Source of the DNA: Candidatus Poribacteria bacterium
Lineage (GTDB): Bacteria; Poribacteria; WGA-4E; WGA-3G
DNA: 64,000 nucleotides
NCBI GenBank assembly: GCA_965214095.1
Contig: OZ243938.1
Location: 3,712,001 to 3,776,000, forward strand
Direction: 5' to 3'
Position numbers and translations under genes: made by a program. Below the pieces are notes generated by a model. It had not been told where the DNA came from. It made no database searches and was given only the letters and a program-made list of their open reading frames with translations. Every line of letters starts with the position of its first letter. Positions within the stretch are counted from its first letter, which is position 1. Positions 1,413 to 59,145 of this stretch are shown one piece after another.

Positions 1413-1414
1413 GA

Positions 1415-2206: not shown

Positions 2207-2223
2207 CTCCCCAACTTTTATGA

Positions 2224-2330: not shown

Positions 2331-2343
2331 ATTAGAGGAATAA

Positions 2344-7988: not shown

Positions 7989-8102
7989 AACCTATGAATA
8001 GATAGAAATTATCCAACTACAGCAATTAGAAATAGTGATATGATAAATTGAATTGTAAAAGAATTTAGATAAAAGCACAGCAACACATCAAGGAGAACAA
8101 AA

Positions 8103-21035: not shown

Positions 21036-21196
21036 TATTGAGTTCCTTCTACTGTATGATAATTCAAAATCCATCGGGTTAGAAACCCTTCCTACAAGTG
21101 TGATCACGAATAGGTAGCAACTTAGGTTATACTATCCATTTCTGAACATGGTAATTAGACATTTTATCTGCATATATATTTATTGATATTTGATAT

Positions 21197-23149: not shown

Positions 23150-23172
23150 TTAATTCTCCTGAATGTATTCTG

Positions 23173-24957: not shown

Positions 24958-25012
24958 TTTTTGTCTACTAATGTTTTAGTGATAATTCCTTTTAAAGTAT
25001 TGTATTTTCCGA

Positions 25013-30524: not shown

Positions 30525-30572
30525 CGTAATCTGTGAGAAAAACCATACCTAATTTTAATGTGTAATTGATCT

Positions 30573-30712
30573 TATAGTAGATTTTGAAATTACTTGAACA
30601 CTCTGCATTGGCGAGGTTAGGAAACCTCACCTACCGTGGGGCGAAAGGCGAGGTTAGGAAACCTAGCCTACCGTGGGGCGAAAGTGTCAACTTATATTTA
30701 TAATTCACTATA
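30573..30712. repeat. MITE-like element with ~29-bp imperfect TIRs and two tandem 37-bp REP units
   Basis: Units at 30610-30646 and 30647-30683; ends TATAGTAG...ACAC / GTGT...CACTATA. Confidence 0.8.
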
Positions 30713-30727
30713 TCAAAGGAGAACAAC

Positions 30728-31981: not shown

Positions 31982-32006
31982 AATAATTGGATATTCTAAA
32001 GGAGAA

Positions 32007-43418: not shown

Positions 43419-44543
43419 ATGAATGCAATAGAACTAACCAAAAAGCTTATTGGATACAACACAGTAAGTCCAAAGAGTAACGTTGAAGTCATGGACTTCT
43501 TAACAATAACATTAGAATCAATCGGATGTGAAGTTGAGAGAGTTGAATATAATGATCCAGCAGGTGTCCTAAAAGTAAATCTGATTGGAAGGAAAGGACC
43601 TGATAATGGAAAACGTGGATTAGGACTTCTCGGTCACATAGACACCGTTCCTGCCATTGGATGGTCGGAGGATCCCTTTGAAGCACGGATCGTTGATGGA
43701 AAAATGTATGGACGTGGCAGCTGCGATATGAAAGGCAGTGTCGCATGCATGATTGAGACTGCTTCACGTTACGATGCTGCTGACCTACATGCACCGCTCT
43801 ATGTAGTTATCACTGCTGATGAAGAGGTAGGTTATTTCGGGGCAACTGCTGTCGCTGAAAAATCCGAAATGTTTAAAGAACACGGATTCCCGCAATACGG
43901 GGTCGTTGGTGAACCGACTGAACTAAAGGCTGTTTATGCACATAAAGGAGCAGTCCGATTTTCAGTAACCGCGTATGGACGCGCAGCGCATAGCAGCACA
44001 GGTGAAGGTGACAACGCAAACCTTAAACTCATTCCATTTCTTTCAGAAATGAGGGATATTTATGAAGAATTGATGTCCGATCCGCAATATTATAACGTTG
44101 AGTTCACGCCACCCTATACAGATTGGAATATCACATTAAGTGATGGAGAGTGCACTGCCAACATCACCTCACCGCGAAGTGTATGTAATATCAACTACCG
44201 TCCGATGCCGGGTGATGATATCCAATATTGGATCGATCGTGGACGAAATGCAGCAGAGAAATATGGACTGGAATTTGACCTATTCATCAATGCCGGACCT
44301 GTTCGCACACCACCCGATGCAGAGATCATCAAAGCAGCACTTGAAATTACGGGAGACACAAAACCGCATACTGTGGCATACGGCACAGATGCTGCGGAAT
44401 TTGCCAATCACATGGAAACTGTCATAATAGGTCCTGGAAGTATTCTACAGGCACATACTGTTGATGAATGGATGGCAATAGATCAGTTTGAGAAGGGAAC
44501 AGATATTTTTTGTCAGTTTGTTGATAGGTTCTGCGTTGGTTAA
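43419..44543 (+). CDS. M20 family metallopeptidase (ArgE/DapE-like deacylase)
   Basis: GHIDTVP, GRGSCDMKG, ADEE, GEPT and AHTVDE motifs. Confidence 0.88.
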   Translation: MNAIELTKKLIGYNTVSPKSNVEVMDFLTITLESIGCEVERVEYNDPAGVLKVNLIGRKGPDNGKRGLGLLGHIDTVPAIGWSEDPFEARIVDGKMYGRGSCDMKGSVACMIETASRYDAADLHAPLYVVITADEEVGYFGATAVAEKSEMFKEHGFPQYGVVGEPTELKAVYAHKGAVRFSVTAYGRAAHSSTGEGDNANLKLIPFLSEMRDIYEELMSDPQYYNVEFTPPYTDWNITLSDGECTANITSPRSVCNINYRPMPGDDIQYWIDRGRNAAEKYGLEFDLFINAGPVRTPPDAEIIKAALEITGDTKPHTVAYGTDAAEFANHMETVIIGPGSILQAHTVDEWMAIDQFEKGTDIFCQFVDRFCVG

Positions 44544-44570
44544 GAGGCGCAATGAATTGCGCGACTACGA
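44544..44570. repeat. REP-like palindrome
   Basis: GAGGCGCAATGAATTGCGCGACTAC, near-identical to 9221-9245. Confidence 0.7.
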
Positions 44571-44648
44571 ACACCTATTTTGATAATGACAAGTTATCTT
44601 TTGGAAATGGTATTATCAGGTGACTGATGACTGAAAATCGACTGCCAA

Positions 44649-45092
44649 TTACGTGTGTTCAGGAAGTTCTTCAAAAAACACAGCATCCGGTTTCACCCAT
44701 TCGGCATCGCCATCCTCCCACACCTCGCGTTTCCAGATAGGTACAATCTGTTTCAGACGGTTCATCGCATACTGACATGCTTCAAACCCATCTTTACGAT
44801 GTGGAGAGGCAACGGCTACAGCCACACTCACTTCGCCTATTTCTAACTTACCGATGCGATGTATCATAGCGACTCGATGTACACCCCATTTATCCGCAAT
44901 CTCATCAGCAATTTCCGCCATCTTTTTTTCTGCCATCGGTGGATATGCCTCATATTCAAGGTATTTTGTCGGTCTATCATCTGTGTTATTCCGAACAGTG
45001 CCAAAGAACAGAATCACTGCGCCAGCATCAGGTGCTTCCACAGCTTCCCGCACCTCTGCACCAGTTATAACATCAGCAGTAATCTTGAACAT
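44649..45092 (-). CDS. moaE: Molybdopterin synthase catalytic subunit
   Basis: GAVILFFGTVR, LEYEAY, HRIGKL, SPHR and LK..VPIWKRE motifs. Confidence 0.95.
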   Translation of the reverse strand: MFKITADVITGAEVREAVEAPDAGAVILFFGTVRNNTDDRPTKYLEYEAYPPMAEKKMAEIADEIADKWGVHRVAMIHRIGKLEIGEVSVAVAVASPHRKDGFEACQYAMNRLKQIVPIWKREVWEDGDAEWVKPDAVFFEELPEHT

Positions 45093-45339
45093 CTCTTCCC
45101 CCCGTCACAGGTGGTATCAACGCCACTTCATCACCATCTACAAGTTCTGTCTCTTCGGTAGCATATTCCCAATTAACAGCCATCTGCATCACTTCGTAGA
45201 ACTCCGCAATTTCTGGCCATTCTTCTTCAAGTTGCTTTAATATCGTATTGACAGTGGAACCTTCAGGAAGTTGCATCTCTTCTTCGGATCTATTCAACAT
45301 CTCGTGGCATACGGCAAAGTATTTGACTGTAACCTTCAT
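45073..45339 (-). CDS. moaD: Molybdopterin synthase sulfur carrier MoaD with C-terminal extension
   Basis: VKYFA, AVN.EY and DGDEVALIPPVTGG motifs, followed by RDVQDYC. Confidence 0.9.
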   Translation of the reverse strand: MKVTVKYFAVCHEMLNRSEEEMQLPEGSTVNTILKQLEEEWPEIAEFYEVMQMAVNWEYATEETELVDGDEVALIPPVTGGRDVQDYC

Positions 45340-45386
45340 TCGAACTCCTTCTCTTTTCTATTTTCAGTAAGTATGTTATTAATAAG

Positions 45387-45415
45387 AGTATATCATAACA
45401 GATAAAGTGTGTCAA
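45387..45415 (-). promoter_or_regulatory. Sigma70 promoter of moaDE
   Basis: TTGACA-N17-TATACT on the minus strand. Confidence 0.7.
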
Positions 45416-45469
45416 TTTCGGATTGTATTATTGGTGTGTAAAGTTTTGGGCAAAATGGACGCAGACATC

Positions 45470-45562
45470 CTGTAGGAGCGATCTCCGCATCGCGATTTCT
45501 TCCATTGTCCGAGCGATCTCCGAATCGCGAACTGTCGGGAATCAGAGATTGCTCTGACAGGT
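45470..45562. repeat. Degenerate GTAG-type REP cluster
   Basis: GAGCGATCTCCG(C/A)ATCGCGA twice plus an inverted degenerate copy ending TGACAGG. Confidence 0.6.
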
Positions 45563-45690
45563 CTTTTGATCATATTTTGTCAATAAATTTACACGCCACT
45601 CGGAAAATATCTGATTGACTACATCGTGCTGCTGTTGTATAATCTCATACAAGAAGCCTTGACTATTTGCAAAGAAAGTGATAAACCGAT

Positions 45691-48600
45691 ATGCCTCAAG
45701 CAACACAAATGCCTTTACCATTCGGAAACGAAGAATCAGATAACGGATTCTACGATGCACTCAACTACATCCGACAAAACGCCAACACACAATTCGGAAA
45801 AGGTAGGCTATTCGAACGGTTAATAAGGGCATATCTGCTTGAAGACCCATTTTACCAAAAGCGATTTTCAGAGGTATATCTATGGGGAGAATGGGCAGAA
45901 AATCAACCCGGATTTGACCTTGTAGACCGTGGTATAGATCTCGTTGCCATAGAACGTACGGGTGGTATCTGCGCTATCCAGTGCAAATGTTACGCAGAAG
46001 ACAAACGTATATCAAAATCTGATATTGATACCTTCATATCAGAATCCAATCGGCAACCGTTCACCGCACGGATCTTTGTTGACACTGGCAAAAGCTGGAG
46101 TGCAAACCTCATCAAAGCCATTGATGGATTAGAACCGCCATGCCAACGGATAAGCGCAGCAGACCTCGCAAGTCGACCTGTTCAGTGGCCCGACCTAAGC
46201 CTACAAGAACCAGACCACCTAAACTATCAACTGGAAAGTTTCAGCCTACGCGAACATCAACAAAATGCGTTTGACGATGTTGTCAAAGGATTCAAAGAGT
46301 CTGACCGCGGCAAAATGATTATGGCGTGCGGCACAGGGAAAACATTCACCGCACTCCGTATCGCAGAGGAAATCGCTGGTGTGGGTGGACGGGTGTTATA
46401 TCTCGTGCCATCCATCGGACTGTTTGCACAAGCGATGCGTGAATGGGCAGAACAGCAGAAAGTGCCACATCGCTACATCGGAATATGCTCCGATACAAAG
46501 GCAGGTAGAACAGACGAGGACGCATCCCTCTATGAACTGGAATTCCCTGTTACCACCGATGAAACTGTCATCTCCGAAGCATTACAATCTTCTAACAGTG
46601 CTGGAGACGAAGACACCATGCGCGTCGTATTCTCCACCTATCAGTCACTCCCAAAAGTCGCGGAAGCACAAGATGCCGGTGCTCCACCTTTTGATATTAT
46701 TTTTTGCGATGAAGGTCACAGAACCACCGGCATTGACAGACCCGATGATAAGACCTCACCTTTCGTTCTCGTCCACGATACTGAACGTATCCGTGCCAAC
46801 AAACGACTCTATATGACCGCGACACCCCGTCTGTATACGCAAAGCGCGAAAACAAAAGCAGCAAAACACGATATTGAAGTGTTCTCTATGGACGATCCAA
46901 ACACTTATGGTCCCGAATTCCACCGACTCCCATTCTCAAAAGCAGTGGCGCAAGACCTACTCTCTGATTATAAGGTTGTCGTGCTCGCAATGTCCGAACA
47001 AGGTGTGCAGGATACGTTACACAACTATCTCAGCAATGGTGGCAGTGAGGTTAACATCAGCGATGCAGCTAAGATTGTCGGCTGTTGGCGTGCACTACAG
47101 AACCCCGAAAGGAAATCACCAGACGACAGGACAATCAAACCCCTCACACGCGCCATTGCATTCACAAACACCATCAAGTCATCACAGAACCTTGTGAACC
47201 ATTGGAACGGTATTATAGAGAGTGCCGTTGAACGGACATCGGAAGACCAACGTCCTGACGATTTCACATGCGAAACCGCACACGTCGACGGAACAAAGAA
47301 CGCCCTTGATAGAAAAAGACTTATTGAATGGCTAAAAGGCGATACGGATGATGTTTGTCGTATCCTCTCCAATGCCCGATGCCTGTCCGAAGGGATTGAT
47401 GTCCCTGCGCTTGATGCTGTGCTGTTCATGTCACCGCGCAACTCACACGTTGACATCGTGCAGGCAGTTGGTCGTGTGATGCGCAAAGCACCCGGTAAGC
47501 AATACGGCTATATCGTGTTGCCAGTCGCTATTCCGCCAGATGTTGACCCTGTCGACGCACTCAACGATAACGAAAGGTTCGCGACCGTGTGGGGTGTCCT
47601 CCGCGCACTCCGTTCACACGATGATAGACTCAATGCCGAAATCAATAAAATTGACCTTAACAACGATCCAGGTGATATTATTATCATTGATGATCATTTA
47701 GGTGAAGGCAAAGGTGGAAATGGAGATGGAACTATCGACCCTAAGCAGTTACTGCTGCCCTTTGGTATTCCTGCCGATGCAATTTATGCCAAAATCGTGG
47801 AGAAATGTGGTGATAGAAAATACTGGGAAAGTTGGGCAAAGGATGTCGCAGATATCTTCAAACGACTCGTCGGACGCATTGAAAATCTGCTGGAGAATCC
47901 TGATAATAGCGCGCTGCAAATGTGGTTTGACGATTTTCACAACGAGTTAAAGGAGACAATCAACGACTCAATCACCCGTGAAAGTGCTATTGATATGATG
48001 GCACAACACATTATCACACGACCCGTCTTTGAAGCACTCTTTGATAACTACGATTTTGCGTCCGGCAACCCGGTGGCAAACGCACTCAATAAACTCCAAA
48101 ACGATTTTGGTGAATTCGGTCTGGAAAACGAAACGCGTGATCTGGAAGGTTTCTACGAAAGTGTCCGCATGCGCGCACAAGGACTTGACAATAGCGAAGC
48201 ACGTCAACGCGTTTTGTTGGAACTCTATGAGAAGTTTTTTGTTACCGCATTGAAAAAGGAGGTAGAACGGCTTGGTATCGTCTACACACCGATTGAAGTT
48301 GTGGATTTCATACTCCATAGTGCCAACGAGGTGCTGCAAGATGAATTCGGACGTTGTCTCAGTGATGAAGGCGTGCATGTGCTGGATCCGTTCACCGGCA
48401 CCGGTATATTTCTCACACGCCTGCTGCAGTCCGATATTATCCAAGATGCTGACCTTGAACGCAAATATCGAGAAGAACTCCACGCAAACGAGATCGTCCT
48501 ATTGGCATACTACATTGCTACCGTCAACATAGAGGAGACATTCCGCGGACGGCGCGGCGTTGACAAAGGATATGAACCGTTCAACGGCATTGTCCTAACC

Positions 48601-50511
48601 GATACCTTCAATCTCAACAAAAAAGATGACCCTACGCTTTTTCCCAAAGAATGGCTGCCAGATAACAACAAACGCGCCGAACGCCAACAGAAACTTCCAA
48701 TCCAAGTCATCGTCGGTAATCCTCCATATTCCGCAGGACAACGAAGTTCCACAGATGACAATCCGAATGTGGAATACCCAACTCTTGCAGAACGTGTTAG
48801 TAAAACGTATGTTGAACGTGTAAAAACAACATTAAAACGGACTCTCTATGATACATATAAGATGGCAATCCGTTGGGCATCCGACAGGATTGATAAACAA
48901 GGGGTTGTAGCCTTTGTCACCAATGGTTCTTGGATTGACGGGAACGCCGATGCAGGGATTCGAGCATGTTTGGCGGAAGAGTTTAGTTCAGCCCATATCC
49001 TGCACTTACGAGGAGATGCATATACATCTGGAGAGCGTCGACGTGCTGAAGGGGGAAATGTGTTCGGTAGTGGTTCACGTACACCTGTCGCTGTCATGAT
49101 CCTCGTCAAGAACCCTAACGCTACACATGAGGGTTGCAAAATCCAATACCGTGATATTGGCGACTATCTCACACGCGAGGCGAAACTGGAAGTACTGCGT
49201 GAGGCGGAATCTATTAAAAAGATTAGTGATTGGAAGACGGTCATACCAGATCAACATCACGATTGGATTGGACAACGAAGCCAAGAATTTACAAAATTCT
49301 ATCCACTTGGTACAAAAGAAATGAAAGCGGGAAAAATCGAAAATGCAATATTTCAATTATATTCGTTGGGATTGTCAACAAACAGAAATGCCTACGTATA
49401 TAATTTTTCACGAGATACATGTGCACAGAAAGCTTTGTTGATGACTCAGGATTATCTCGCAGCTGTTTCCGATCTTGAAAAAAATCCGGGTCTTAATGTA
49501 AAAGAGGTAACGCGTCACAATTCCATAAATATTAAGTGGGATGACACACTCAAGAATAGACTAAAACAAAAGAAAAAATCGAGATTTAATGATGATTACA
49601 TTCGAAAGGTTATCTATCGCCCCTTTGTTGCCACCAATTGTTATGGTGACTATACTTTCATTACCAGAAAGGGACAAATGGATAAGATTTTCCCAGACAG
49701 TTCCAGCGAGAATTGGGTAATCTGTGCAACGGGTATCGGATCAAAAATACCTTTTTCTGCTTTTATGACCAATATACTGCCAGATCTTGAACTAATTTCT
49801 AAAGGACAATGCTTCCCCCGCTACCGATATCCCACACCATCGGATACACCAGACGCATCAGAAACGCTTCTTGATGTTGACGACTCACCTGATCGTATTG
49901 ACAATATATCAGATATCGCACTAAAAGCATTCCAAGAACATTACAGCGATGACTCTATCACAAAGGATGACATCTTTTATTATGTCTACGGCATCCTCCA
50001 CGCTCCAAGTTACCGAGAACAGTTCGCTAACGACTTATCCAAGATGCTCCCGCGTATCCCTTATGCGCCAGATTTCCGCGCATTCGCAGAAGCAGGTAAA
50101 AAGTTGGCAGACCTCCATCTCAACTACGAGACGTGCGAACAGTATCCACTCACAGTAGAGTATCCAAATATGTCCTCACCACCAACAGACCCGAACATTT
50201 TCCGGCTAACGGAAAGAGCCATGCGTTTTGGAGATATTGAAAGAAGATCGCTTCTCATCAACGAACCTGTCCACCTAACAGGTATTCCCGAAGATGCTCA
50301 TCGCTATGTCGTCAACGGCAGATCGCCGCTGGAGTGGTTTATTGATAGGTATTATATTAAGACTGATAAGGATAGTGGTATTGTCAACGACCCAAACGGT
50401 TGGTTTGCTGACCCACGGGATATTGTTGGTGCTATTCGGCGGATTGTTTATGTGAGTGTGAAGTCTGCTCGGATTGTTGATGGACTGCCTGGGGAGATAA
50501 CAGATGGGTAA
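45691..50511 (+). CDS. Type ISP restriction-modification enzyme (Mrr-like nuclease, SF2 helicase, N6-adenine MTase, TRD)
   Basis: GIDLVA..AIQCK nuclease motif; MACGTGKT, DEGH, MTATP and QAVGRVMR helicase motifs; DPFTGTG and GNPPY MTase motifs; 1606 aa. Confidence 0.92.
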   Translation: MPQATQMPLPFGNEESDNGFYDALNYIRQNANTQFGKGRLFERLIRAYLLEDPFYQKRFSEVYLWGEWAENQPGFDLVDRGIDLVAIERTGGICAIQCKCYAEDKRISKSDIDTFISESNRQPFTARIFVDTGKSWSANLIKAIDGLEPPCQRISAADLASRPVQWPDLSLQEPDHLNYQLESFSLREHQQNAFDDVVKGFKESDRGKMIMACGTGKTFTALRIAEEIAGVGGRVLYLVPSIGLFAQAMREWAEQQKVPHRYIGICSDTKAGRTDEDASLYELEFPVTTDETVISEALQSSNSAGDEDTMRVVFSTYQSLPKVAEAQDAGAPPFDIIFCDEGHRTTGIDRPDDKTSPFVLVHDTERIRANKRLYMTATPRLYTQSAKTKAAKHDIEVFSMDDPNTYGPEFHRLPFSKAVAQDLLSDYKVVVLAMSEQGVQDTLHNYLSNGGSEVNISDAAKIVGCWRALQNPERKSPDDRTIKPLTRAIAFTNTIKSSQNLVNHWNGIIESAVERTSEDQRPDDFTCETAHVDGTKNALDRKRLIEWLKGDTDDVCRILSNARCLSEGIDVPALDAVLFMSPRNSHVDIVQAVGRVMRKAPGKQYGYIVLPVAIPPDVDPVDALNDNERFATVWGVLRALRSHDDRLNAEINKIDLNNDPGDIIIIDDHLGEGKGGNGDGTIDPKQLLLPFGIPADAIYAKIVEKCGDRKYWESWAKDVADIFKRLVGRIENLLENPDNSALQMWFDDFHNELKETINDSITRESAIDMMAQHIITRPVFEALFDNYDFASGNPVANALNKLQNDFGEFGLENETRDLEGFYESVRMRAQGLDNSEARQRVLLELYEKFFVTALKKEVERLGIVYTPIEVVDFILHSANEVLQDEFGRCLSDEGVHVLDPFTGTGIFLTRLLQSDIIQDADLERKYREELHANEIVLLAYYIATVNIEETFRGRRGVDKGYEPFNGIVLTDTFNLNKKDDPTLFPKEWLPDNNKRAERQQKLPIQVIVGNPPYSAGQRSSTDDNPNVEYPTLAERVSKTYVERVKTTLKRTLYDTYKMAIRWASDRIDKQGVVAFVTNGSWIDGNADAGIRACLAEEFSSAHILHLRGDAYTSGERRRAEGGNVFGSGSRTPVAVMILVKNPNATHEGCKIQYRDIGDYLTREAKLEVLREAESIKKISDWKTVIPDQHHDWIGQRSQEFTKFYPLGTKEMKAGKIENAIFQLYSLGLSTNRNAYVYNFSRDTCAQKALLMTQDYLAAVSDLEKNPGLNVKEVTRHNSINIKWDDTLKNRLKQKKKSRFNDDYIRKVIYRPFVATNCYGDYTFITRKGQMDKIFPDSSSENWVICATGIGSKIPFSAFMTNILPDLELISKGQCFPRYRYPTPSDTPDASETLLDVDDSPDRIDNISDIALKAFQEHYSDDSITKDDIFYYVYGILHAPSYREQFANDLSKMLPRIPYAPDFRAFAEAGKKLADLHLNYETCEQYPLTVEYPNMSSPPTDPNIFRLTERAMRFGDIERRSLLINEPVHLTGIPEDAHRYVVNGRSPLEWFIDRYYIKTDKDSGIVNDPNGWFADPRDIVGAIRRIVYVSVKSARIVDGLPGEITDG

Positions 50512-50551
50512 AGTGTCTGTTTATTGAGTTAAGTATATTCGTCACTTTTCC

Positions 50552-50581
50552 TTGACAAGACGTGAGAGAATGTGTTAATAT
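50552..50581 (+). promoter_or_regulatory. Promoter upstream of the structured leader
   Basis: TTGACA-N18-TAATAT with a TGn extension; predicted start near 50588. Confidence 0.55.
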
Positions 50582-50588
50582 ACTATTA

Positions 50589-51105
50589 TGAATCATTACG
50601 ACTCTGCAAACGTCAAATGATTCAACGATCCATGGCAGACACTCATATTTACTAAACGTGAATTTATGAGTGTCGGAACGCCTTTCGTGTTTCTCCTGAT
50701 AGCATGTATGTTCGGAACGCTTATCCAAGAGACTCTGTTTAATGACACAGGTCTCTTTAATGCCACTTCTAAGGCTCTCAGTAGCCTTCATACAAACATG
50801 TTGACTAACATGATGTCAACTGAACTAACAAAATGGGTGGTTCAAAAATCCCATTTTTATATATTAGGAGGTATTTTTATGTTAGGAAATTTCAGAAAAA
50901 ATTTGGCAAGGTATATAAACCTAATATCCGCAAACAACCCTAAAGGGGACACGGAAGAAGTTCGTGAGTGGGTTTAAATACTCACATAGAAGTAGGGGGA
51001 CATATAAGAAGTCCCCCTTGGATGTGCATGCAATAACCCTTCTTGAGTTACCTCCTACCTTTTCAAATTTCCCATAAGTTCAGTTATCGTCTACTGATAG
51101 TCAAT
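50589..51105 (+). ncRNA. Candidate large structured RNA or leader (unknown class)
   Basis: At least 8 local hairpins plus four nested long-range complementary blocks (see findings). Confidence 0.5.
50879..50977 (+). CDS. Putative 32-aa small protein (MLGNFRKNLARYINLISANNPKGDTEEVREWV)
   Basis: AGGAGG 7 nt before the ATG; followed by the AGGGGGAC/GTCCCCCT hairpin. Confidence 0.45.
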   Translation: MLGNFRKNLARYINLISANNPKGDTEEVREWV

Positions 51106-51134
51106 CTAGCTTTTGGAATACCTTATACGTTATT

Positions 51135-53888
51135 ATGTTCACTAATCCCTATTCCATTTACATAGATAAACGCCCGATGAGGATCGTGTTCCTTGTGAGT
51201 CCTTCACAGGACAGCATTGAGATAGTCGATAAAATAATAAATTACAACAGGGGATTGTGGGGTGGTCGATACAACCCAATTATTCTAACTGATGGAAAAG
51301 CAATCGAAGATAATTGGTGGAAGTTTCTACGCGACCTTGACCCAGATGTTATCAAACCTTTAGTGCCTCTGAGCAATGAACTCATAGAAAAATTTGAAAA
51401 CTTCCTCTCTCCTTTGACAATTGAAGAGTTTCGAGAAGATGACAATTCAAGATTAGAAGTAGGTACCCGCATTTCTCCTGCACGTGTAAATCCTAAATCA
51501 ATAAATTCCCGTGAATCTTTGGTCTTGTTTAGAGAACCAATACTTGGGCTTTTTAATGTAGATGAGATGGACTCCGGCGTAGATAAACTTTTCATTGACC
51601 GCAATTTTGGAGTATCTGCAGACGGAAGACATCATTACGGTTGGGATGCATTTGATATTCCGATATCGCTTGAGACAGCATTGTCGCGCGGAGAAGTTCC
51701 TCAAGAGATACATGAAGGATTTATAAAAAAAGGACTTGAAGAAAAAGGTATACCTTTTTCTCAGGAAGTTTTCAGTAAAGAATCAGTGCAAGAACCTGGA
51801 AATTGGGCAATAATAGATAGGGAAAATAATGGTATACACTACATTGAACGTAGGGATGGAAGATTATGTGTTCTTCCTTATAGGAAAAGTAAGATTCTCA
51901 ACTCTGATGAAAATGAGATTGAGAAAAATATCTACTTAACGGTTGATCGGGAAAGTCTCGTTGATGCTTTATCAGAACTCGCTAAAACTAATAATATGAT
52001 ATACCGTGATCAAATTTGTGCTTTTCCGAATACAGAACGAGATGTTGAAAAACAAGAACAAGATCGTTTTCAAGTTATTGTAGGTGATACTATAGAAGAT
52101 CTTGTCTATTTTTGGAACAGACCTTGGTTGATAAGTCGATGGAAACGGCAGTATATGCATCAGTTATGGCTTCCCACTGCCTTAGCTACTGATCCAGATA
52201 TGGAAGATGCGCTCTGTGCTTGGATAAACAAGAATTCTTGGATTGAGCGTGAAAATTCCAAAGCAATCCAGTTTGTTAGCTTCAGCACTGAAGAAGAGGA
52301 TCTTAAGAATATAGCAAGTAGGTTCCGGAATAAACTAAGGTTTTCTACTAACGTAAAATGTTACGATGAACCACAAACACCTAATTTTCGTTCTGAAGAT
52401 CCATTATTCTCCTTGCGTCAAAATCCATTTACCGATAGAGATAGTAATATTGAACTTCATAGGGGACAAGGTAATACAAACATACTTGAATTAACCGAAC
52501 CTAATGGAATTGCCCAACGCGATCTGGACGGACATTGGATGGCAGATTTTTATATTGAGTTTACAAGTGATATGTACAATAATCATGATGCACCAATAAT
52601 AAGAATAAGAAACCAATTTTCCTTTTGGCAGTTTCCAAACCGCAACCATTTGACGCGCAACATGTTTGATAGATTTTGCAGAATCCGACAGAACGGTTTC
52701 CCAACCGCCCTGATGAAACGAGGAGAAAAAGTATTAAGGTTCACGCTTGAAAATCCTGAGGTTGTAGTAGCTTCACTATTTTATGGTAATAATCGTTTTG
52801 AGTATGTTGATAGCGATCCACGGACTCAGGTTGCGATTGCCCCATACTATTACTCAAAAATATCAGATAAAGGAAAATATCTTCAAGGTGTACTCGAACT
52901 GTTTGGTAATCTGACCTATGCTTACGAAATATTCAGGAACCCGTATTGGCGGGCAATGTTTGATCTCTTGTGCAAAAACACTCGCGCAGAACAGAATGCG
53001 AAAAAGTTAGTCGAGGACAAATTGAGAAAACTAATCAATAGGTCGGAACCGTTGACATCTTCTAACCAAAATGCTATTGAGGCACTTGCCACACAAGCTG
53101 TAGACATCGCAAAAAAACTAAAATTAAAACAGAAAGAAGTTCCTTTCAAAGCATTTGAAGTAGAAGCAGAGATAAGGCGAGATACCTTTATTGAAGGCGT
53201 AAAATCAACAGGTAACTACTCCGAAAGGGACCTAATGGGTTTTGGTTTTAGACCCGAAGATGTGAAAGATGCTCTTTCACAATTAACAGAGAGGAATATT
53301 ATCCAGATTGGTGTAAACCCACGATGCCCTAATTGCGGTATAACAACATGGTTTCATGTAGACGACATCGGACAACAATTAACATGTCAAGGATGTAGGA
53401 GACCATTTCCTCTTCATCCACAACTTACTTGGCAATATAGATTGAATAATCTCGCCCATGCTGCTCATGCCCAACATGGAACTACGCCTCTAATTTTAGT
53501 TTTGGGACAATTGTTCAATGAAAGCAGATGTTCTTTTCTCTATTCTCCTAATTTAAATTTATGTGCTGAACAGCAGGACAACTCGTCTGTAGACTTAGAC
53601 TTAGATTCAATTGCAGAAGTCGATATCGCATGCATTCAGGATAGTAAATTCATTATTGGTGAAGTCAAGCAGTCAATGAGTCTTTTCAGTAAAAAGGATT
53701 TTGATGATATGGCAGAGATTGCCAAGAGAGTAAAACCAGATAAGGTTTTATTTTCATGTATAGATAAACAACAACCAACTCAAAACATAACTAACCACAT
53801 TGAAAGAATCAAAAAGGAACTATGTCCACTTGAAATTGATGTTATATGGTACGAATTGGAATCTTTGGATTATTCATATAGTGTGTAG
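51135..53888 (+). CDS. Large hypothetical protein with C-terminal Zn ribbon and PD-(D/E)xK-like nuclease motif
   Basis: CPNC..CQGC; EVDIACIQDSKFIIGEVK; 917 aa inside the defence island. Confidence 0.7.
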   Translation: MFTNPYSIYIDKRPMRIVFLVSPSQDSIEIVDKIINYNRGLWGGRYNPIILTDGKAIEDNWWKFLRDLDPDVIKPLVPLSNELIEKFENFLSPLTIEEFREDDNSRLEVGTRISPARVNPKSINSRESLVLFREPILGLFNVDEMDSGVDKLFIDRNFGVSADGRHHYGWDAFDIPISLETALSRGEVPQEIHEGFIKKGLEEKGIPFSQEVFSKESVQEPGNWAIIDRENNGIHYIERRDGRLCVLPYRKSKILNSDENEIEKNIYLTVDRESLVDALSELAKTNNMIYRDQICAFPNTERDVEKQEQDRFQVIVGDTIEDLVYFWNRPWLISRWKRQYMHQLWLPTALATDPDMEDALCAWINKNSWIERENSKAIQFVSFSTEEEDLKNIASRFRNKLRFSTNVKCYDEPQTPNFRSEDPLFSLRQNPFTDRDSNIELHRGQGNTNILELTEPNGIAQRDLDGHWMADFYIEFTSDMYNNHDAPIIRIRNQFSFWQFPNRNHLTRNMFDRFCRIRQNGFPTALMKRGEKVLRFTLENPEVVVASLFYGNNRFEYVDSDPRTQVAIAPYYYSKISDKGKYLQGVLELFGNLTYAYEIFRNPYWRAMFDLLCKNTRAEQNAKKLVEDKLRKLINRSEPLTSSNQNAIEALATQAVDIAKKLKLKQKEVPFKAFEVEAEIRRDTFIEGVKSTGNYSERDLMGFGFRPEDVKDALSQLTERNIIQIGVNPRCPNCGITTWFHVDDIGQQLTCQGCRRPFPLHPQLTWQYRLNNLAHAAHAQHGTTPLILVLGQLFNESRCSFLYSPNLNLCAEQQDNSSVDLDLDSIAEVDIACIQDSKFIIGEVKQSMSLFSKKDFDDMAEIAKRVKPDKVLFSCIDKQQPTQNITNHIERIKKELCPLEIDVIWYELESLDYSYSV

Positions 53889-53904
53889 TGTGAAATAGAT
53901 TTAT

Positions 53905-54050
53905 AGCGATGATACTAAATTAATGCGGACAAGTCAAGAAGGCACTTTGTCTCTGAACCTGAACGAAATGCAGACAATTCAGTCCCATTTGCAACGCTAC
54001 AATGCAATCCAACTGATGTAGAGTTTGAGACTTTTCCGCGCGGTTTGGTT
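53905..54050 (+). pseudogene. purL: Degenerate internal fragment of purL (FGAM synthase)
   Basis: With one frameshift it reads SDDTKLMRTSQEGTLSLNLNEMQTIQSH-ATLQCNPTDVEFETF, resembling the PurL LxLxxxEM..I..RNPTDVELE motif. Confidence 0.6.
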
Positions 54051-54054
54051 TAGG

Positions 54055-54135
54055 GCAATTAAATGTATTGTTTATGTGAGTGTGGAATCTGCTTGCATTA
54101 TTGATAATCTGCCCGCTGAAATAACTGCGGAATAA
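54055..54135 (+). repeat. Diverged copy of the Type ISP gene 3' end
   Basis: Reads AIKCIVYVSVESACIIDNLPAEITAE*, 17/26 aa identical to the Type ISP C-terminus. Confidence 0.9.
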
Positions 54136-54203
54136 GGTTCCCCTGTACTTTTTGAATTGGAATTGAAGAAACTGTTATAGAATAAAATGAACACAGAAAT
54201 TAT

Positions 54204-54252
54204 AAGATGGTTGGACACTCAGTTGCAACAAATTCCAAGACCATCTTTTTTC
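54204..54252 (+). terminator. Terminator/attenuator-like hairpin just upstream of the AlbA_2 gene
   Basis: AAGATGGT-TGGA...TCCA-AG-ACCATCTT followed by a T run. Confidence 0.45.
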
Positions 54253-54265
54253 TAAAGGTAGATCA

Positions 54266-55480
54266 ATGTATACTAACCGAACCGAACTCATAGAAAAAAT
54301 ATTTCTTGGTGAAGACACAACAATTGAATTCAAAAGAGAGATGCCTCACAGAAACAGTTTGGCAGACGAGATTGCTGCTTTTGCAAACGCCCAAGGCGGC
54401 GTAATACTTATCGGCGTTGACGACTATAGGGAAATTGTTGGCCTTGAACTGCCGGAGCTGGATAGGATAGAAAAAACGGTTGTTGAAATATGCAATGACT
54501 GGATTGAACCTACCGTTCCCATCTTCACAGAAAAATTAAGGTTTGATGGTAAAAACCTACTAAAAATTGATGTGTCGCGTAGTCTTTTTGTTCATAAAAC
54601 GTCTAACGGTTATTTCACCCGTAAAGAAAGATGCAAGAAAGAGATGTCAACACAACAGTTAGCCCGACTGTTTCAAACCCGTTCACAGCCGCGCAAAATT
54701 CACTTTGACACACTACCTGTCCCAAACACACATAGAAGAACATTAAGGGAATCGTTATATCGACGATGCATCACAGAAAACGTCTCTGAAGATGAGATAG
54801 AAGACCTACTCTTGAAAAGAAGTTTACTTGTTAAAGAAGGACAGACGACCCGTGCTACTGTTGCTGGCGTTTTAATGTGTCACGATACACCTGATGATTT
54901 TCTCTATAACAGTTTTATTCAAGCCGTTTATTATAGCGGCAAAGTAAAAGATGCGAACTACCAAATTGATGCAAAAGATTTTAGAGGACCACTTGACCAA
55001 CAGATTATAGATGCCTTTAAGTTTGTCCAAAAACACAATGAGGTATCAGCGCGTAAGGACATTGGTAGGATAGACCGACCTCAATACAGCATGCGCGCCG
55101 TTTTCGAGGCAATCGTTAACGCAGTTGTACATAGAGATTATTCTAAAGACGAGTCAAGAATTCGTCTTTTCATGTTTGCTGATCGACTGGAACTATATTC
55201 TCCCGGTGCATTAGCAAATACTGTAACAATTGAAAAATTACCCTATAACCAAGCTACCCGTAATGAACTCTTAGCACGTTTACTTTCGGAAATTAATTTA
55301 GATGATGATGTTGGAGGAGAAGTGAAGCGGAGACACTTTTTAGAGGGACGTGGTGAAGGTGTAGGTATCATCCTGAACGAAAGTGAACAATTGAGTGGAA
55401 AAATACCTGTCTATGAACTATTTAACGAAGAATTGTGCTTAACAATTTTCGCCGCAAAATCCCTTCAAGAAACAGTATAA
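54266..55480 (+). CDS. Schlafen/AlbA_2 domain plus HATPase_c_4 (RecG-C-like) protein
   Basis: GEDTTIEFK, IAAFANAQGGVILIGVDD, EAIVNAVVHRDY, DRLELYSPG and EGRGEG motifs. Confidence 0.85.
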   Translation: MYTNRTELIEKIFLGEDTTIEFKREMPHRNSLADEIAAFANAQGGVILIGVDDYREIVGLELPELDRIEKTVVEICNDWIEPTVPIFTEKLRFDGKNLLKIDVSRSLFVHKTSNGYFTRKERCKKEMSTQQLARLFQTRSQPRKIHFDTLPVPNTHRRTLRESLYRRCITENVSEDEIEDLLLKRSLLVKEGQTTRATVAGVLMCHDTPDDFLYNSFIQAVYYSGKVKDANYQIDAKDFRGPLDQQIIDAFKFVQKHNEVSARKDIGRIDRPQYSMRAVFEAIVNAVVHRDYSKDESRIRLFMFADRLELYSPGALANTVTIEKLPYNQATRNELLARLLSEINLDDDVGGEVKRRHFLEGRGEGVGIILNESEQLSGKIPVYELFNEELCLTIFAAKSLQETV

Positions 55481-55596
55481 ACGATTGGTTTTCAGATCCA
55501 TACGATATTATTGAAGCAATCAAGCGGATTGTTTATGTGAGTGTAGAATCTACGCGAATTATTGATGGGCTGCCTAATGAGATAACTACTGACTAA
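55480..55596 (+). repeat. Second diverged copy of the Type ISP gene 3' end
   Basis: Reads NDWFSDPYDIIEAIKRIVYVSVESTRIIDGLPNEITTD*, 26/38 aa identical to 50395-50511. Confidence 0.92.
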
Positions 55597-55635
55597 TGTA
55601 ATCACCACGCACTATCGTCAAATCTTTTATAAGAA

Positions 55636-55730
55636 TGTACTGCCAGCGGATACTCTTTTCAGTTAGAGTGTTATTATACCGTAATCTGGGTTTAGACTGT
55701 GGACACAATTTCCGATGGCAGTACAGTTTT
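55636..55730. other. Multi-branched stem-loop between convergent units
   Basis: TGTACTGCCA-G-CGGA...TCCG-A-TGGCAGTACA closing stem with an internal ACTCT/AGAGT hairpin. Confidence 0.55.
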
Positions 55731-55782
55731 TCTGATATGTATTGCATTGCTATAGAACAAAGATGAGGAAATTCAGTAGATT

Positions 55783-56757
55783 TTATTCAAGAGAATCCTC
55801 AAGCTCCATTAACATCTTTGGAACTTGTAGCATCATTTTATATTGCTTCTGAAGTGAATTCTGATGAGATGAAATCCAAGAAAGGGCATTAGCAACATCA
55901 TAGATATTTTCTGCAGGTTGTGCTCCAGGCACATTACCTTCCAAAGAAATTCTAATCATATAACAATCTTTTTTTTCTTCAGTTTTTTTGTCTTTGAATC
56001 TTGTGATCTTTGCATCTTGTCCTGTTTCCAGAATACTATATACTCTTTCAGCATTCCTGCGTCCCCACTTATCAGAGACTATAGTGTCAATCCAGTTCTG
56101 TAGTATTTCTGCATCTGTATCAGCATTTAGTTCTTTCTGTTTCCATTTTGTATATACTTCTTTTTCTCGTTGAATTTTTGAGATGTTTTCATTTAGATAT
56201 TCAATCAGTAATCCAGGATTTAAAGACCTTGTATGTCGTTTACTAAATCTACTTTCTGTGTCTAAACACATAAGCCCGTTCAAACAAACAAGTCTGTACC
56301 AAGATAACTCAAAAGCTAATTGAGCATTTCCATCTACAGAGTTCCTAACATGCAACTGAGGTATGAGTATATGGCCATCTCCTGGATCAAATATATATCC
56401 TTTCAAGAATTGTATTTTCAACCACATACGCTCGCCGTATTCTGTTAAATACAAGTTGCATTCGGTTTCATCTATGTTATATCCCAGATTTTCAAATGCT
56501 TTAGTAATAATTTCAAGTATCTCAGAATGTTGAACAAGAGAATATGATTTAGATACTGTTGCGACAGGTATGCCACCATGTGAAGTATTTACGATTACAT
56601 CAAAATGTTTATTCTCCAATCCGCCTACTTCAAAAGGCTGCTTCCTAAAAACAGATATATAATCTGCAATTTCTACAAGATTTCCTTTATGTTCATTAAC
56701 TAATCTACTGTCCCATTCTAAATTATTTAGGTGGTATGTATTCTCTAAGGTGTTCAT
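55783..56757 (-). CDS. DUF932/DUF945 family protein
   Basis: VSKSYSLVQH, NSVDG, YRLVCLNGL and N.YDVANAL motifs. Confidence 0.8.
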   Translation of the reverse strand: MNTLENTYHLNNLEWDSRLVNEHKGNLVEIADYISVFRKQPFEVGGLENKHFDVIVNTSHGGIPVATVSKSYSLVQHSEILEIITKAFENLGYNIDETECNLYLTEYGERMWLKIQFLKGYIFDPGDGHILIPQLHVRNSVDGNAQLAFELSWYRLVCLNGLMCLDTESRFSKRHTRSLNPGLLIEYLNENISKIQREKEVYTKWKQKELNADTDAEILQNWIDTIVSDKWGRRNAERVYSILETGQDAKITRFKDKKTEEKKDCYMIRISLEGNVPGAQPAENIYDVANALSWISSHQNSLQKQYKMMLQVPKMLMELEDSLE

Positions 56758-57037
56758 GGTAATTTCCGTGTTCTAATTTATTAGCTTTTCTAGCTGAGAT
56801 TATGCGAATTACATTTCCCCGTTCAGTATGAATAACAACCAGCAATCTGTTTTTAACAGAATATCCAGTAGTTTTATATCTTTCTTCATCTTGTGAGTGT
56901 AGATCATCGTTCTCTGTTAATGATAGAGAAGATGAGAATACTGTCATTGCTTCATGAAAAGTTACTTTATGTTTTTTTACATTGTTTGTTTGCTTGTTCT
57001 CGTCCCACTCAAATTTAAGGTTATCATTGAATTCCAC
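56723..57037 (-). CDS. brnT: BrnT family ribonuclease toxin
   Basis: FEWDENK..NVKKHKVTF.EA, EER...G, LVVIHTER and IRIISARKA motifs. Confidence 0.9.
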   Translation of the reverse strand: MEFNDNLKFEWDENKQTNNVKKHKVTFHEAMTVFSSSLSLTENDDLHSQDEERYKTTGYSVKNRLLVVIHTERGNVIRIISARKANKLEHGNYHEHLREYIPPK

Positions 57038-57107
57038 GTACCCATCTCTGCCCCGCAGGAAATTGCTTTATGCAATCTCTAATAATCTATTTTGTGATGT
57101 GAAATCT

Positions 57108-57136
57108 ATGATAACATATTTCTTAGAGCTTGTCAA
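57108..57136 (-). promoter_or_regulatory. Sigma70 promoter of brnT-DUF932
   Basis: TTGACA-N17-TATCAT with a TG extension on the minus strand. Confidence 0.65.
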
Positions 57137-57197
57137 GAAATTGCTTTAACTGGGGTGTGTGAAGTTTTTGGCACAGAGATACACGCTTCTGTTTTCT

Positions 57198-57495
57198 TTA
57201 GTCCCGTAGGGACAGAATGTTTGTAGAAACCGAGTAGCATTCAACTCTTTAGTCCCGTATGAAGATTAAGAAATAAATTGGGTAATTTCCTTGAGAAGTC
57301 CGGTGCGGTTAGGAAACCGCACTATAGGCATCAATTTAGTGTTAATTATGCATTTTCCCCAAGACGGTAGGTTCGGTTTCCTAACCGAACCGGATCCTAC
57401 GGTAGAACCTCTATGAAGGTATTTGGCACAAAGCCGGTGCGGTTAGGAAACCGAACCTACCGGCACTTGGAAGGACGCTAAATTGACACCTATGG
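57198..57495. repeat. Cluster of nested REP/MITE-like elements
   Basis: AGTCCCGTAGGGAC unit; three CGGTGCGGTTAGGAAACCG-type hairpins; TIRs ATAGGCATCAATTTAG / CTAAATTGACACCTAT. Confidence 0.8.
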
Positions 57496-57580
57496 TGAAA
57501 AACTTTACATACCCTTGTATTTTCATCATTCATCTGGTAAAATAGATATAGAAATAAACTACGAAGAAACACAACAAAAC

Positions 57581-57940
57581 ATGGACAATATCATCATAAA
57601 AGGTATAAGATTTCACGGACATCACGGTGTTCCTGAAGCAGAACGTCAAGTCGGTGGACACTATGAAGTTGATGCCACGTTGAGTTGTCCGCTGATAGAT
57701 GCAGGCAAGTCCGACACACTTGAAGACACAATTGATTATGCAAGTGTTGTTGATCTAATCATTGATATTGGCACACAAAGATCTTTTCAGCTGATAGAAG
57801 CATTAGCAGAGACAATAGCAACAGAGATCTTACAGCAGTATCCAATAGATTCTGTCCACCTTAAAGTCAAGAAACTCAAACCTCCAATAGAGCAACCCAT
57901 CACCTACTTTGCAGTTGAAATCTGTCGTCCAAAGGAGTGA
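57581..57940 (+). CDS. folB: Dihydroneopterin aldolase
   Basis: FHGHHGV..AER, DTIDYA, LIEALAE and K.KPPI motifs; start set at MDNIIIK. Confidence 0.92.
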   Translation: MDNIIIKGIRFHGHHGVPEAERQVGGHYEVDATLSCPLIDAGKSDTLEDTIDYASVVDLIIDIGTQRSFQLIEALAETIATEILQQYPIDSVHLKVKKLKPPIEQPITYFAVEICRPKE

Positions 57941-59145
57941 ACATGCGTTTTTGTAGAAGAATATGCATCGTTATTTTTTTGCTATGTCTAACAAATACTA
58001 TTACTTACGCAGGTGGCAAAAAAACACAACTCTTTGTTGACCTGTCAACAGGTCTCAACATCTACCGTTACGACTGGGATAAGGAAACTTGCATCCTATA
58101 TGTTGCTGAGATTTCTCGGAAAGAACCAACCCTACATTTTGAGGTCGGACTCGCAAATTCACAAGTTCTTGGCAAAGAGACTGTCCGATCTATTGCCCAA
58201 CGTCATACACAAAAGAATGACCGCCGCGTTGTCGTCGCTGTAAACGGAGGCTTCGGTGTTCTCGGTGATATGCGAGGTTACGGTGGTGTATTAGAAAGTC
58301 TACATATACAAGATGGTGAACTGATCACTCAACCAACGGACACTGATGCCTGCTTCGGAGTCACTGATACCGGTGATTTCCTCAGCACTCCCGTGCAAAT
58401 GAAAGCAACTATACAAATAGGTTCACATACATTAGATATCGGATGTATCAATCAGCGAAGACTTGATGGATGTAAGGTAATACTCTATACGCCACGTCTT
58501 GGGGACTCTACTCACACCAACCGCCGCAGAGGAAAGGAAATAATACTTAGTGGACTCACACTACCATTGACACCAAACTACACGCAATCATACAATGTTC
58601 AGGCAGTTTCCACCGCCGGTAACACTGCAATCCCTAAAGACAGTGCCGTTCTCTGGATAAGTTCACAGGTTAAAGACACAGCAATTTCTCAGTTCAAAGC
58701 GGGAGCAAAGGGGAAAATCAATGTCTCACTCACACCGCCTGAATGGAATAAGGTAAAACACGCACTCGGTGGAAGATTACGATTGCTCAAGAATGGAAAG
58801 ATAAACCAGATGCTTGTTGATATGCACAATAAAGAGAAAAAGCATGTCCCCGGTAAACGTAATCAAGTGCTCAATCTGAGTCATGAACCCAGAACAGCAC
58901 TCGCTTATAATGCCGATACACTTTTTTTGGTTGTCGCTGATGGCAGGCAACCAAAATATAGTATGGGATTAACTCTCTACGAACTTGCTGACATTCTTAT
59001 TGAACTGGGAGCAACTGAAGCGATCAATCTTGATGGGGGTTCTTCAAGCACTTTTGTTGTCAATGATGAAGTTATCAACAAACCTTCAGGAAATAGAGAA
59101 CGGGAAGTTCTTAATGCAGTGTTAATTACAAAGGATGTAGAATAA
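57937..59145 (+). CDS. Phosphodiester glycosidase (NAGPA-like) exported protein
   Basis: AVNGGF, EPRTA, VADGRQ and AINLDGGSS motifs. Confidence 0.85.
   Translation: MNMRFCRRICIVIFLLCLTNTITYAGGKKTQLFVDLSTGLNIYRYDWDKETCILYVAEISRKEPTLHFEVGLANSQVLGKETVRSIAQRHTQKNDRRVVVAVNGGFGVLGDMRGYGGVLESLHIQDGELITQPTDTDACFGVTDTGDFLSTPVQMKATIQIGSHTLDIGCINQRRLDGCKVILYTPRLGDSTHTNRRRGKEIILSGLTLPLTPNYTQSYNVQAVSTAGNTAIPKDSAVLWISSQVKDTAISQFKAGAKGKINVSLTPPEWNKVKHALGGRLRLLKNGKINQMLVDMHNKEKKHVPGKRNQVLNLSHEPRTALAYNADTLFLVVADGRQPKYSMGLTLYELADILIELGATEAINLDGGSSSTFVVNDEVINKPSGNREREVLNAVLITKDVE

Follow-up and report, generated by a model that had tools for sequence, protein, structure and literature searches.

Recurring 3' ends of a Type ISP restriction-modification gene mark the boundaries of defense cassettes in a Candidatus Poribacteria genome

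Defense islands turn over quickly, and how cassettes enter and leave them without mobility genes is poorly understood. The island described here lies in a 64,000-nucleotide stretch of a Candidatus Poribacteria genome (GenBank assembly GCA_965214095.1, contig OZ243938.1, positions 3,712,001 to 3,776,000 of the forward strand), referred to below as the window, with coordinates counted from its first letter. In it, the 3' end (tail) of a Type ISP restriction-modification (RM) gene recurs twice downstream of the intact gene. Judged from its sequence, each additional tail is the 3' remnant of another version of this restriction gene and still adjoins the defense genes that formerly lay downstream of it. 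A first-pass annotation had proposed that these tails act as a reusable landing site, through either an att-like core or a homology anchor, at which cassettes accumulate in the manner of an integron.

Integrons are linear stacks of promoterless or short-leader cassettes, each ending in a recurring element, and many of these cassettes are defense genes. The island likewise stacks cassettes with defense cargo that are each bounded by a recurring sequence, but IntI, attI, a folded attC-type palindrome, and a fixed crossover point are all absent from it, and its recurring element is a coding remnant. At rhs and cdiA loci, orphan C-terminal modules are displaced, the displaced piece being a variable toxin tip with its immunity gene. 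The likeness lies in the presence, behind a main gene, of 5'-truncated repeats of that gene's 3' region, each linked to a separate downstream gene, and may extend to growth by displacement when a new end arrives, with a short conserved stretch permitting homologous recombination with the main gene. The difference is that here the conserved last 20 to 100 codons are displaced, the variable part is unrelated defense cargo, and the specificity domain is not kept; no variable tip with a cognate protective gene was found in the orphan tails. The minimal mobile elements of Neisseria are cassettes exchanged between conserved flanks by transformation and homologous recombination, and cassette exchange between conserved flanks is what the island may share with them, except that its flank is a pseudogene remnant inside the island, so that one locus would have several exchangeable slots. 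Homology-facilitated illegitimate recombination, in which homology on one side is combined with an illegitimate join at the far side, could produce the founder junctions of the island.

The closest described phenomenon appears to be insertion with long target duplication at RM genes, of which the island could be regarded as a stacked variant. In the main text on that phenomenon (Furuta, Abe & Kobayashi 2010, Nucleic Acids Research [NAR], PMC2853133), blocks lie between direct, target-derived repeats of tens to hundreds of base pairs, which often overlap the 3' end of a gene, involve no transposase or integrase, and are linked to RM loci; in the published tables, the repeats are 88 to 100% identical. 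The repeats of the island are similarly target derived, located at a gene 3' end, linked to an RM gene, and free of a mobility enzyme. They are longer than 30 bp (80 to 120 nt in the window and 282 nt in the related locus L124), the inserts are without mobility genes, and ISP loci with a single tail exist, including L057 to L060 and L069 to L071; L124 (282 bp, 91% identical) fits the description closely. The differences are that the RM gene serves as the target instead of being inserted and other defense genes make up the inserts (an AlbA_2 ATPase and a 917-amino-acid [aa] protein in the window and Ppl, ThsB, CBASS, PDC-S11, and others in relatives), that several units are stacked with flanks that appear to have been reshuffled later, and that the repeats come from different alleles (58 to 85% identical) and not from a fresh duplication. 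Near-identical repeats were found only in L124 (91%) and L046 (95%) and not in the window (61% and 74%), where the nearest relatives of the tail copies lie in other genomes. Similar cases may be present in the supplementary figures of that paper. In the main texts and listings of the literature on Type ISP enzymes, defense islands, long target duplication, and poribacterial RM systems, no description of cassette arrays delimited by ISP tails was found.

The island is situated between moaE and folB and consists of the ISP gene, a 103-aa gene (orf103), a gene for the 917-aa protein (p917), an AlbA_2/HATPase_c_4 gene, and, on the opposite strand, DUF932 and BrnT genes. The ISP gene (45691 to 50511, plus strand) is intact and encodes 1606 aa, and its last 39 codons constitute tail copy 1 (50395 to 50511). 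Pfam domains Mrr_cat_2 (residues 52 to 174), ResIII (184 to 380), Helicase_C (521 to 599), ISP_coupler (711 to 836), N6_Mtase/Eco57I (841 to 1106), and Type_ISP_C (1219 to 1577) were identified in the protein, which thus unites in one polypeptide the Mrr-type nuclease, SF2 helicase-like motor, coupler, N6-adenine methyltransferase, and C-terminal specificity domain that define a Type ISP enzyme. The PADLOC model REase_MTase_IIG matches it across its full length.

The recurrence of the ISP 3' end reported in the first-pass annotation was reproduced in all particulars. Copies are present at 54035/54055 to 54135 and at 55479 to 55596, both in frame and with the stop codon at the same position, and 17 of 26 residues in copy 2 and 26 of 38 in copy 3 are identical to tail 1 (hand count on translations). 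Over 121 nt, copy 2 is 61% and copy 3 is 74% identical to copy 1, and over the last 60 nt the identities are 77 to 82%; tail boundaries obtained with tblastn are approximate. The 17-mer ATTGTTTATGTGAGTGT occurs exactly three times in the window (50443, 54067, and 55528), with no additional match at ≤2 mismatches, compared to an expected number of 0.02, and none of 100 shuffles reached three. Copies 1 and 3 have 21 bp in common, and the final base of the AlbA_2 stop codon (55478 to 55480) is also the first of copy 3. An unbiased repeat scan of positions 44400 to 57700 returned the ISP tail as the only long direct-repeat family. No additional tail copy was found elsewhere in the whole genome, and the three other Type_ISP_C genes of the genome end in unlike tails.

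The proposal that the cassettes were derived from other alleles agrees with the tail comparisons. Tails of one array were 58 to 85% identical over the last 60 nt, with the exception of one pair in L046 (95%), versus identities of up to 95% for their best matches over the same length, which were located in other genomes and mostly came from full-length genes. Concerted evolution of tails within a genome was considered and rejected, as a same-locus pair at 95% was found only in L046. Differences among tails were mostly synonymous (ratio of nonsynonymous to synonymous changes [pN/pS], 0.27 to 0.29 between orphans and 0.16 to 0.27 between full-length pairs), so that most of the divergence accrued while the tails were still coding, and orphaning was comparatively recent.

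Comparison of each copy to other genomes revealed composite junctions. The 127 nt preceding copy 2 (53908 to 54034, plus strand) are a 5' pseudogene fragment of purL, 84% identical at the nucleotide level to codons ~20 to 62 of the real purL genes of L048, L050, and L056, with a protein-level match interrupted by internal stops and a frameshift. This fragment is fused to the orphan tail (54035 to 54135, ISP codon ~1573 to the stop) at purL codon ~62, with a microhomology of at most 1 to 3 nt, and the tail shows 84% nucleotide identity to the full-length tails of L045 and L046. The identical purL'::tail junction was found in four genomes, in which homology ends at the tail stop codon and neither the upstream nor the downstream cargo is shared: p917 lies upstream and a remnant of the gene c4 plus AlbA_2 lies downstream in the window, a trypsin-like gene and a ThsB module occupy these positions in L044, a 194-aa gene and c5 plus c4 in L046, and CBASS and DUF4268 in L049. 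In L046, the composite is an open 112-aa frame (L046:7111-7449) with the Pfam domain FGAR-AT_linker. Only 84 nt of the 3' end of c4, a 539-aa gene, is kept after copy 2 in the window (54182 to 54265, plus strand), running into AlbA_2, so the c5 and c4 pair that is usual behind tails of this type has been deleted there. From 54182/54186 onward, the window is collinear with the c4-AlbA_2 arrangement of L053 and L054, and the tail-2 type with c5 and c4 is intact in L051, L056, and L069 and continues into AlbA_2 in L054. In most genomes of the genus, the island is located between a PEP-hydrolase-like gene and purL. The same slot in this genome (G000:C1:4348614-4357978, L171 and L173; sulfatase, PEP-hydrolase-like, ..., purL, purQ), ~0.59 Mb from the ISP island, contains only a WD40-LRR gene and no ISP gene or tail; the purL fragment is therefore read as a fossil of an earlier location or donor.

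Copy 3 has the same AlbA_2|tail junction as L043 and L044, plus a further deletion of ~30 nt that places the tail on the AlbA_2 stop codon. At its 3' end, the last codons and the next 20 bases match those of a full-length ISP gene in L060 that likewise has DUF932/BrnT behind it, which makes copy 3 a hybrid of the 5' junction of L043 and L044 and the 3' end of L060. The DUF932/BrnT block (55783 to 57037) shows 94% nucleotide identity to L044, in addition to its occurrence behind the full-length gene in L060. Copy 1, with its spacer, orf103, and p917, has counterparts behind a full-length ISP gene in L057 and behind an orphan tail in L067. In a run from another study (X5), positions 53299 to 54023 of the window, comprising the p917 3' end and the purL fragment, were recovered nearly unchanged (1 to 2 differences and one 6-nt insertion), and the ISP and AlbA_2 pieces differed by 4 to 9% from the window; this mosaic is a hint of exchange.

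Tail frequency was determined in 61 genomes of the order with a 43-aa tail query, and 73 matches with E values of ≤2e-5 were counted by hand. A search with the whole protein was replaced by 43-aa control peptides, its best 150 matches being mostly paralogues and unfit for counting small fragments. Tail matches were located in frames of ≥1162 aa (n = 28), in frames of ≤129 aa (n = 31, including a few frameshifted full-length genes, such as that in L054), and in intermediate frames representing split, truncated, and contig-end genes (n = 14). All strong matches to two internal control peptides, ISP residues 693 to 735 and 557 to 599, were in frames of ≥674 aa, with no short-frame match (0/36 and 0/37, respectively). 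The N-terminal peptide (residues 1 to 43) had 28 strong matches, of which 15 were in frames of ≥1359 aa and ~9 appeared to be 5' stubs, the rest being split genes or contig ends. Gene ends survive and the middle does not, with 3' ends about three times as frequent as 5' ends, and the pattern is a frequent one: orphan tails are about as numerous as intact genes in these genomes. One 5' stub adjoins a replaced ISP body in the close relative L044 (15319 to 19876), where a Hypoth_Ymh gene and a 1033-aa methyltransferase-type paralogue stand between stubs of ~80 nt of the 5' end and ~200 nt of the 3' end.

Modularity was surveyed at 50 loci (the window, L043 to L071, and L151 to L170), which come from related genomes recorded under Candidatus Poribacteria and other phyla, many of them metagenome-assembled genomes (MAGs), by clustering the 150 nt upstream and downstream of each tail. 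The 62 tail matches comprised 16 long frames, 6 pieces of broken full-length genes, and 40 orphans, and the 12 orphans with both flanks classifiable represented 9 different combinations of upstream and downstream classes. The purL' junction was paired with c5, DUF4268, or ThsB leaders, the PEP-hydrolase flank with c5, DUF4268, or a third class, and the AlbA_2 junction with DUF4268 or, in the window, with a different end. A DUF4268 gene came after the tails ending in P(L/V)QI..D* in 6/6 cases, at a distance of 48 to 50 nt in the five that are intact, although the upstream junctions of these tails were of four kinds. The distance from the tail to c5 was 46 to 50 nt in five loci and 29 nt in L051. 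Because different downstream modules go with different last codons of the tail, exchanges must have happened inside tails. The proposal of the first-pass annotation that the tails are boundaries of different defense cassettes was supported, and its homology-anchor alternative accords with the free pairing of upstream with downstream classes. Cargo differed among relatives, and the array cargo was defense related, including Ppl, ThsB and other TIR proteins, CBASS, Pycsar, GmrSD, PDC-S11, PDC-S20, and OLD-like ATPases. The ISP tail did not prove to be a unique landing site, as the WD40-LRR gene likewise has a duplicated 3' end of the PEP-hydrolase-like gene behind it, and ISP 5' stubs also occur.

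The pattern recurs in another phylum and with another anchor gene. In a MAG recorded as Caldilineaceae (L124:1420-9837), a cassette containing a KAP-NTPase (PDC-S20-like) gene and an AAA_21/OLD-TOPRIM gene is enclosed between a full-length ISP gene and the 282-bp copy of that gene's 3' end, with 7 amino acid changes among 25 base changes. In three genomes, the final ~118 nt of the PEP-hydrolase-like gene that lies upstream of a WD40-LRR gene (953 to 956 aa) recur as an orphan copy behind the latter (L053:9333-9450, 78% identical; L170:3152-3262; and L050, ~13831-14009).

The reading that we favor, with a probability of about 0.6, is that orphan tails are scars of the block-wise joining of ISP-locus ends that were later reused as arms for homologous recombination. 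The island would then be composed of the concatenated 3'-terminal parts of three different Type ISP loci, the first block comprising the intact ISP gene, orf103, and the 917-aa gene, the second the purL fragment joined to a tail from a second allele with the c5/c4 remains and AlbA_2, and the third the tail of a third allele with DUF932/BrnT. Each orphan tail would mark where a new ISP-locus block was joined before an older one, leaving the older ISP gene cut to its last 20 to 100 codons while an intact allele sits upstream. The founding joins, of which purL codon ~62 :: ISP codon ~1573 is the clearest case, would have been illegitimate, originating either in tandem duplication of the cargo slot from the ISP tail to the purL 5' end or in a one-sided homology-facilitated insertion. 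An orphan tail would thereafter provide ~100 nt homologous to every ISP allele in the population, and RecA-type recombination between tails, or between a tail and purL, could add, replace, or delete cassettes with no site-specific recombinase. We infer homologous recombination as the exchanging process, along with the order of these events and the entry of donor DNA. Each cassette keeps the end of its former RM neighbor, so the island would be readable as a record of successive allele and cargo replacements, and the remnants would offer a simple recombinase-free route for stacking and swapping defense genes. The account constitutes a testable model for island growth, and orphan tails could be used as markers for cassette boundaries and for new defense genes, such as the 917-aa protein, the c5/c4 pair, and a 975- to 1000-aa family described below.

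Several observations weigh against this reading. No recombination event was seen directly, and contigs of runs X1, X4, X5, and X6, which drop rare variants, contained no joint at any tail; the only contig joints (sides of 20 to 36 letters) link short dispersed flank repeats, some skipping ~12 kb, and are read as other repeat copies and not as excision. No tail separates p917 from the c5 module behind it in L057, which implies that tails are dispensable. Orphan tails and adjoining purL fragments had similar identities to functional references (84 versus 84, 87 versus 90, 90 versus 89, and 75 versus 79%), and because the tail is preserved no better than the adjoining pseudogene, it shows no sign of selection on itself. 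The ~nine 5' ISP stubs indicate that part of the tail bias may reflect the survival of gene ends in deletions that must spare neighboring genes. Crossover points inside tails could not be mapped, many of the related genomes are MAGs of related species and not independent samples, and ComEC and DprA are present but nearly universal and so only permissive.

The equal decay of tail and purL fragment would also be expected if the tails were pure scars, that is, decaying leftovers of independent replacement or deletion events with no later role in cassette exchange, and this alternative is further consistent with the variable 5' boundaries of the orphans (codon ~1504 to 1584), the frameshifted or eroded copies in L045, L051, L153, and L155, the 5' stubs, and the tailless junction in L057. 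It is nevertheless unlikely as the whole explanation, since a single purL'::tail junction is joined to three different downstream modules, with the last codons switching with the module, the AlbA_2|tail junction has two different contexts downstream, and tail 3 of the window is of hybrid origin; shared junctions of this kind require exchanges inside the tail. The end of the ISP gene could instead carry a promoter or 5' untranslated region (UTR) for the next gene, such that deletions stop upstream of those signals. The short and fixed distances from tail stop to start codon reported above for c5 and DUF4268, the well-conserved spacers with a ribosome-binding site, the retention of ~20 codons even in the shortest orphans (L048 and L051), and the presence of stubs from both gene ends and none from internal parts all accord with such a constraint, which may well contribute to the survival of the very end of the gene. 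That it accounts for the arrays is quite improbable: no plus-strand sigma-70-like site lies within tail 2 or 3, the site of tail 1 lies after the stop (a consensus that may not fit the phylum), c5 in L057 has no upstream tail, and the recombinant flanks are left unexplained.

An att-type system, in which a site-specific recombinase encoded elsewhere recognizes the 17-bp core and inserts circular cassettes, is very unlikely, although the exact 17-mer is present in 3/3 copies, the array has a cassette-like layout, and the genome contains three matches to the tyrosine recombinase family (PF00589), the nearest ~0.8 Mb from the window. Among 20 distinct full-length tails from related genomes, synonymous conservation of the core (0.65 to 1.00 per codon) was the same as that of flanking codons, an outcome that the first-pass annotation had itself set beforehand as evidence against an invariant att-like core. 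Majority-codon fractions for I-V-Y-V-S-V were 0.74, 0.82, 1.00, 0.68, 0.65, and 0.80, compared to 0.75 to 1.00 for flanking invariant residues (e.g., N, 0.90; F, 1.00; D, 0.85; and I, 0.85 to 0.93). The exact 17-mer is missing from several tails, both full-length and orphan, which have synonymous variants in its place, and the exact match within the window is attributable to an invariant IVYVSV peptide encoded with preferred codons. Homology reaches beyond the core on both sides to variable 5' boundaries, and no inverted repeat, as an attC site with its fixed crossover point would require, lies in the tails, which disagrees with the integron-like site-specific insertion that had been suggested. 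The accompanying statement that no integrase is visible was upheld, as none of the 52 open reading frames (ORFs) scanned in the window had a recombinase or transposase domain, and the scanned ORFs of related loci yielded only IS-type DDE transposases. It is highly improbable that orphan tails are small functional genes or decoys producing a peptide that matches the C-terminal helix region of the ISP enzyme. The reading frame and stop position are kept in most orphans and pN/pS is below 1, but many have no start codon or start mid-domain at different codons, several contain stops or frameshifts, stops precede window copy 2, and the low pN/pS is explained by divergence before orphaning. Repeat-induced chimeras are scarcely conceivable. 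The genome and most relatives are MAGs, but the copies are only 61 to 82% identical, and their longest shared run, 21 bases, would not be enough to mislead an assembler. Contigs of runs X1 and X4 cover 45514 to 54696 and 54669 to 57288 without differences, bridging tails 1 and 2, although runs X1 to X4 may be the assembly's own data, and the junctions are found again in separate genomes, of which several were assembled as single contigs.

A bolder extension of scar formation and reuse, offered here only tentatively, is that orphan tails and composite linkers (purL'::tail) might function as recombinase-free docking sites, each slot being refilled independently from the population's pool of ISP-linked cargo by homologous recombination. 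The linker would copy the left border of the cargo slot, formed by the ISP tail, as well as the right border, formed by the purL start, and would thereby give one locus several slots. If so, cassettes with such a handle would spread more readily, and the RM gene end would be the common "address" of a defense gene exchange network across sponge-associated bacteria, a homology-based analogue of the integron.

The cargo of the first block begins with a spacer (50512 to 50665, plus strand) that contains a sigma-70-like site at 50552 to 50581 (TTGACA-18-TAATAT, 10/12 matches to a consensus that may not be that of this phylum) and a modest fold (z-score, −2.28). Conserved versions of this spacer lie behind full-length ISP genes in L057 and L059 and behind an orphan tail in L067 (downstream class 2). 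The "structured leader" assigned to this region in the first-pass annotation in fact contains the conserved gene orf103 (50666 to 50977, plus strand; 103 aa), which shows 47% identity by tblastn to sequences at the same position after the ISP gene in two other genomes (L057 and L058) and had no family match in Pfam, PADLOC, or NCBIfam. The 917-aa protein (51135 to 53888, plus strand) has homologues of 63 to 67% identity behind the ISP tail in L057 and L067 and had no sequence match in Pfam, PADLOC, NCBIfam, or PDB; Atlas groups it with hypothetical-protein clusters, and its earlier designation as nuclease-like was left without support. The two genes probably form a two-gene cassette.

The AlbA_2 gene (54266 to 55480, plus strand) is predicted to encode a 404-aa protein with Schlafen AlbA_2 and HATPase_c_4 domains (Pfam), and homologues with 75 to 82% identity were found in 7 of the first 14 related loci and in 7 later loci. 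Residues 32 to 397 match the PADLOC pAgo model (E value, 4e-19). Fusions of Schlafen and Argonaute with a GHKL ATPase have reportedly been described in a 2026 preprint, and the window gene may be an Argonaute-less counterpart of these. A long hairpin (55636 to 55725) with a 10-bp outer stem in both minimum free energy (MFE) and centroid folds lies between tail 3 and the convergent DUF932 gene, the z-score of the whole region being only −1.2, which is not significant. The right-hand block consists of the DUF932 gene (55783 to 56757) and the BrnT toxin gene (56723 to 57037), both on the minus strand and identified with Pfam. In positions 44000 to 58000, no Rfam family was found at E values of ≤1, and promoter and terminator scans gave counts that were not above those of shuffles (22 versus 22.6 and 4 versus 4.4, respectively).

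The left flank of the island (44541 to 45530) contains moaE (44649 to 45092, minus strand; Pfam), short dispersed repeats (44541 to 44615 and 45433 to 45530), and repeat D2, and the right flank (57190 to 57940) contains dispersed palindromic repeats (57190 to 57500), folB (57515 to 57940, plus strand), and repeats D3, I1, and I2. Contig depth relative to the island was 3 to 30 times as high on the left flank and ~160 times as high on the right flank. The flank repeats are partly palindromic and are also present in other genomes of the genus, with a tandem run in L044; they may account for the position of the island between moaE and folB.

Further ISP-associated arrangements were observed in related genomes. 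A family of 975- to 1000-aa proteins (L062:5843-8809, L064:10483-13485, and L065:10479-13406), with 26 to 76% identity among members, had no Pfam match and only a weak match to a PADLOC methyltransferase motif. In three genomes, which belong to two other families, its genes precede an orphan ISP tail, immediately in L064 and L065 and separated from it by a TPR gene in L062. Degenerate orphan ISP tails in L047 (9238 to 9327) and L170 (~3330 to 3400) directly precede truncated ISP-type genes of 885 to 901 aa with coupler, methyltransferase, and specificity regions only, and in L080 such a truncated gene follows a full-length ISP gene. Elsewhere in the window, four tandem WD40-repeat genes (19047 to 27061, minus strand; 594 to 686 aa), three tandem beta-lactamase-family genes (29286 to 33185, plus strand), a Pup-ligase/proteasome gene cluster (9 to 4405), and two tandem Uma2-family genes (7419 to 8672) were found.

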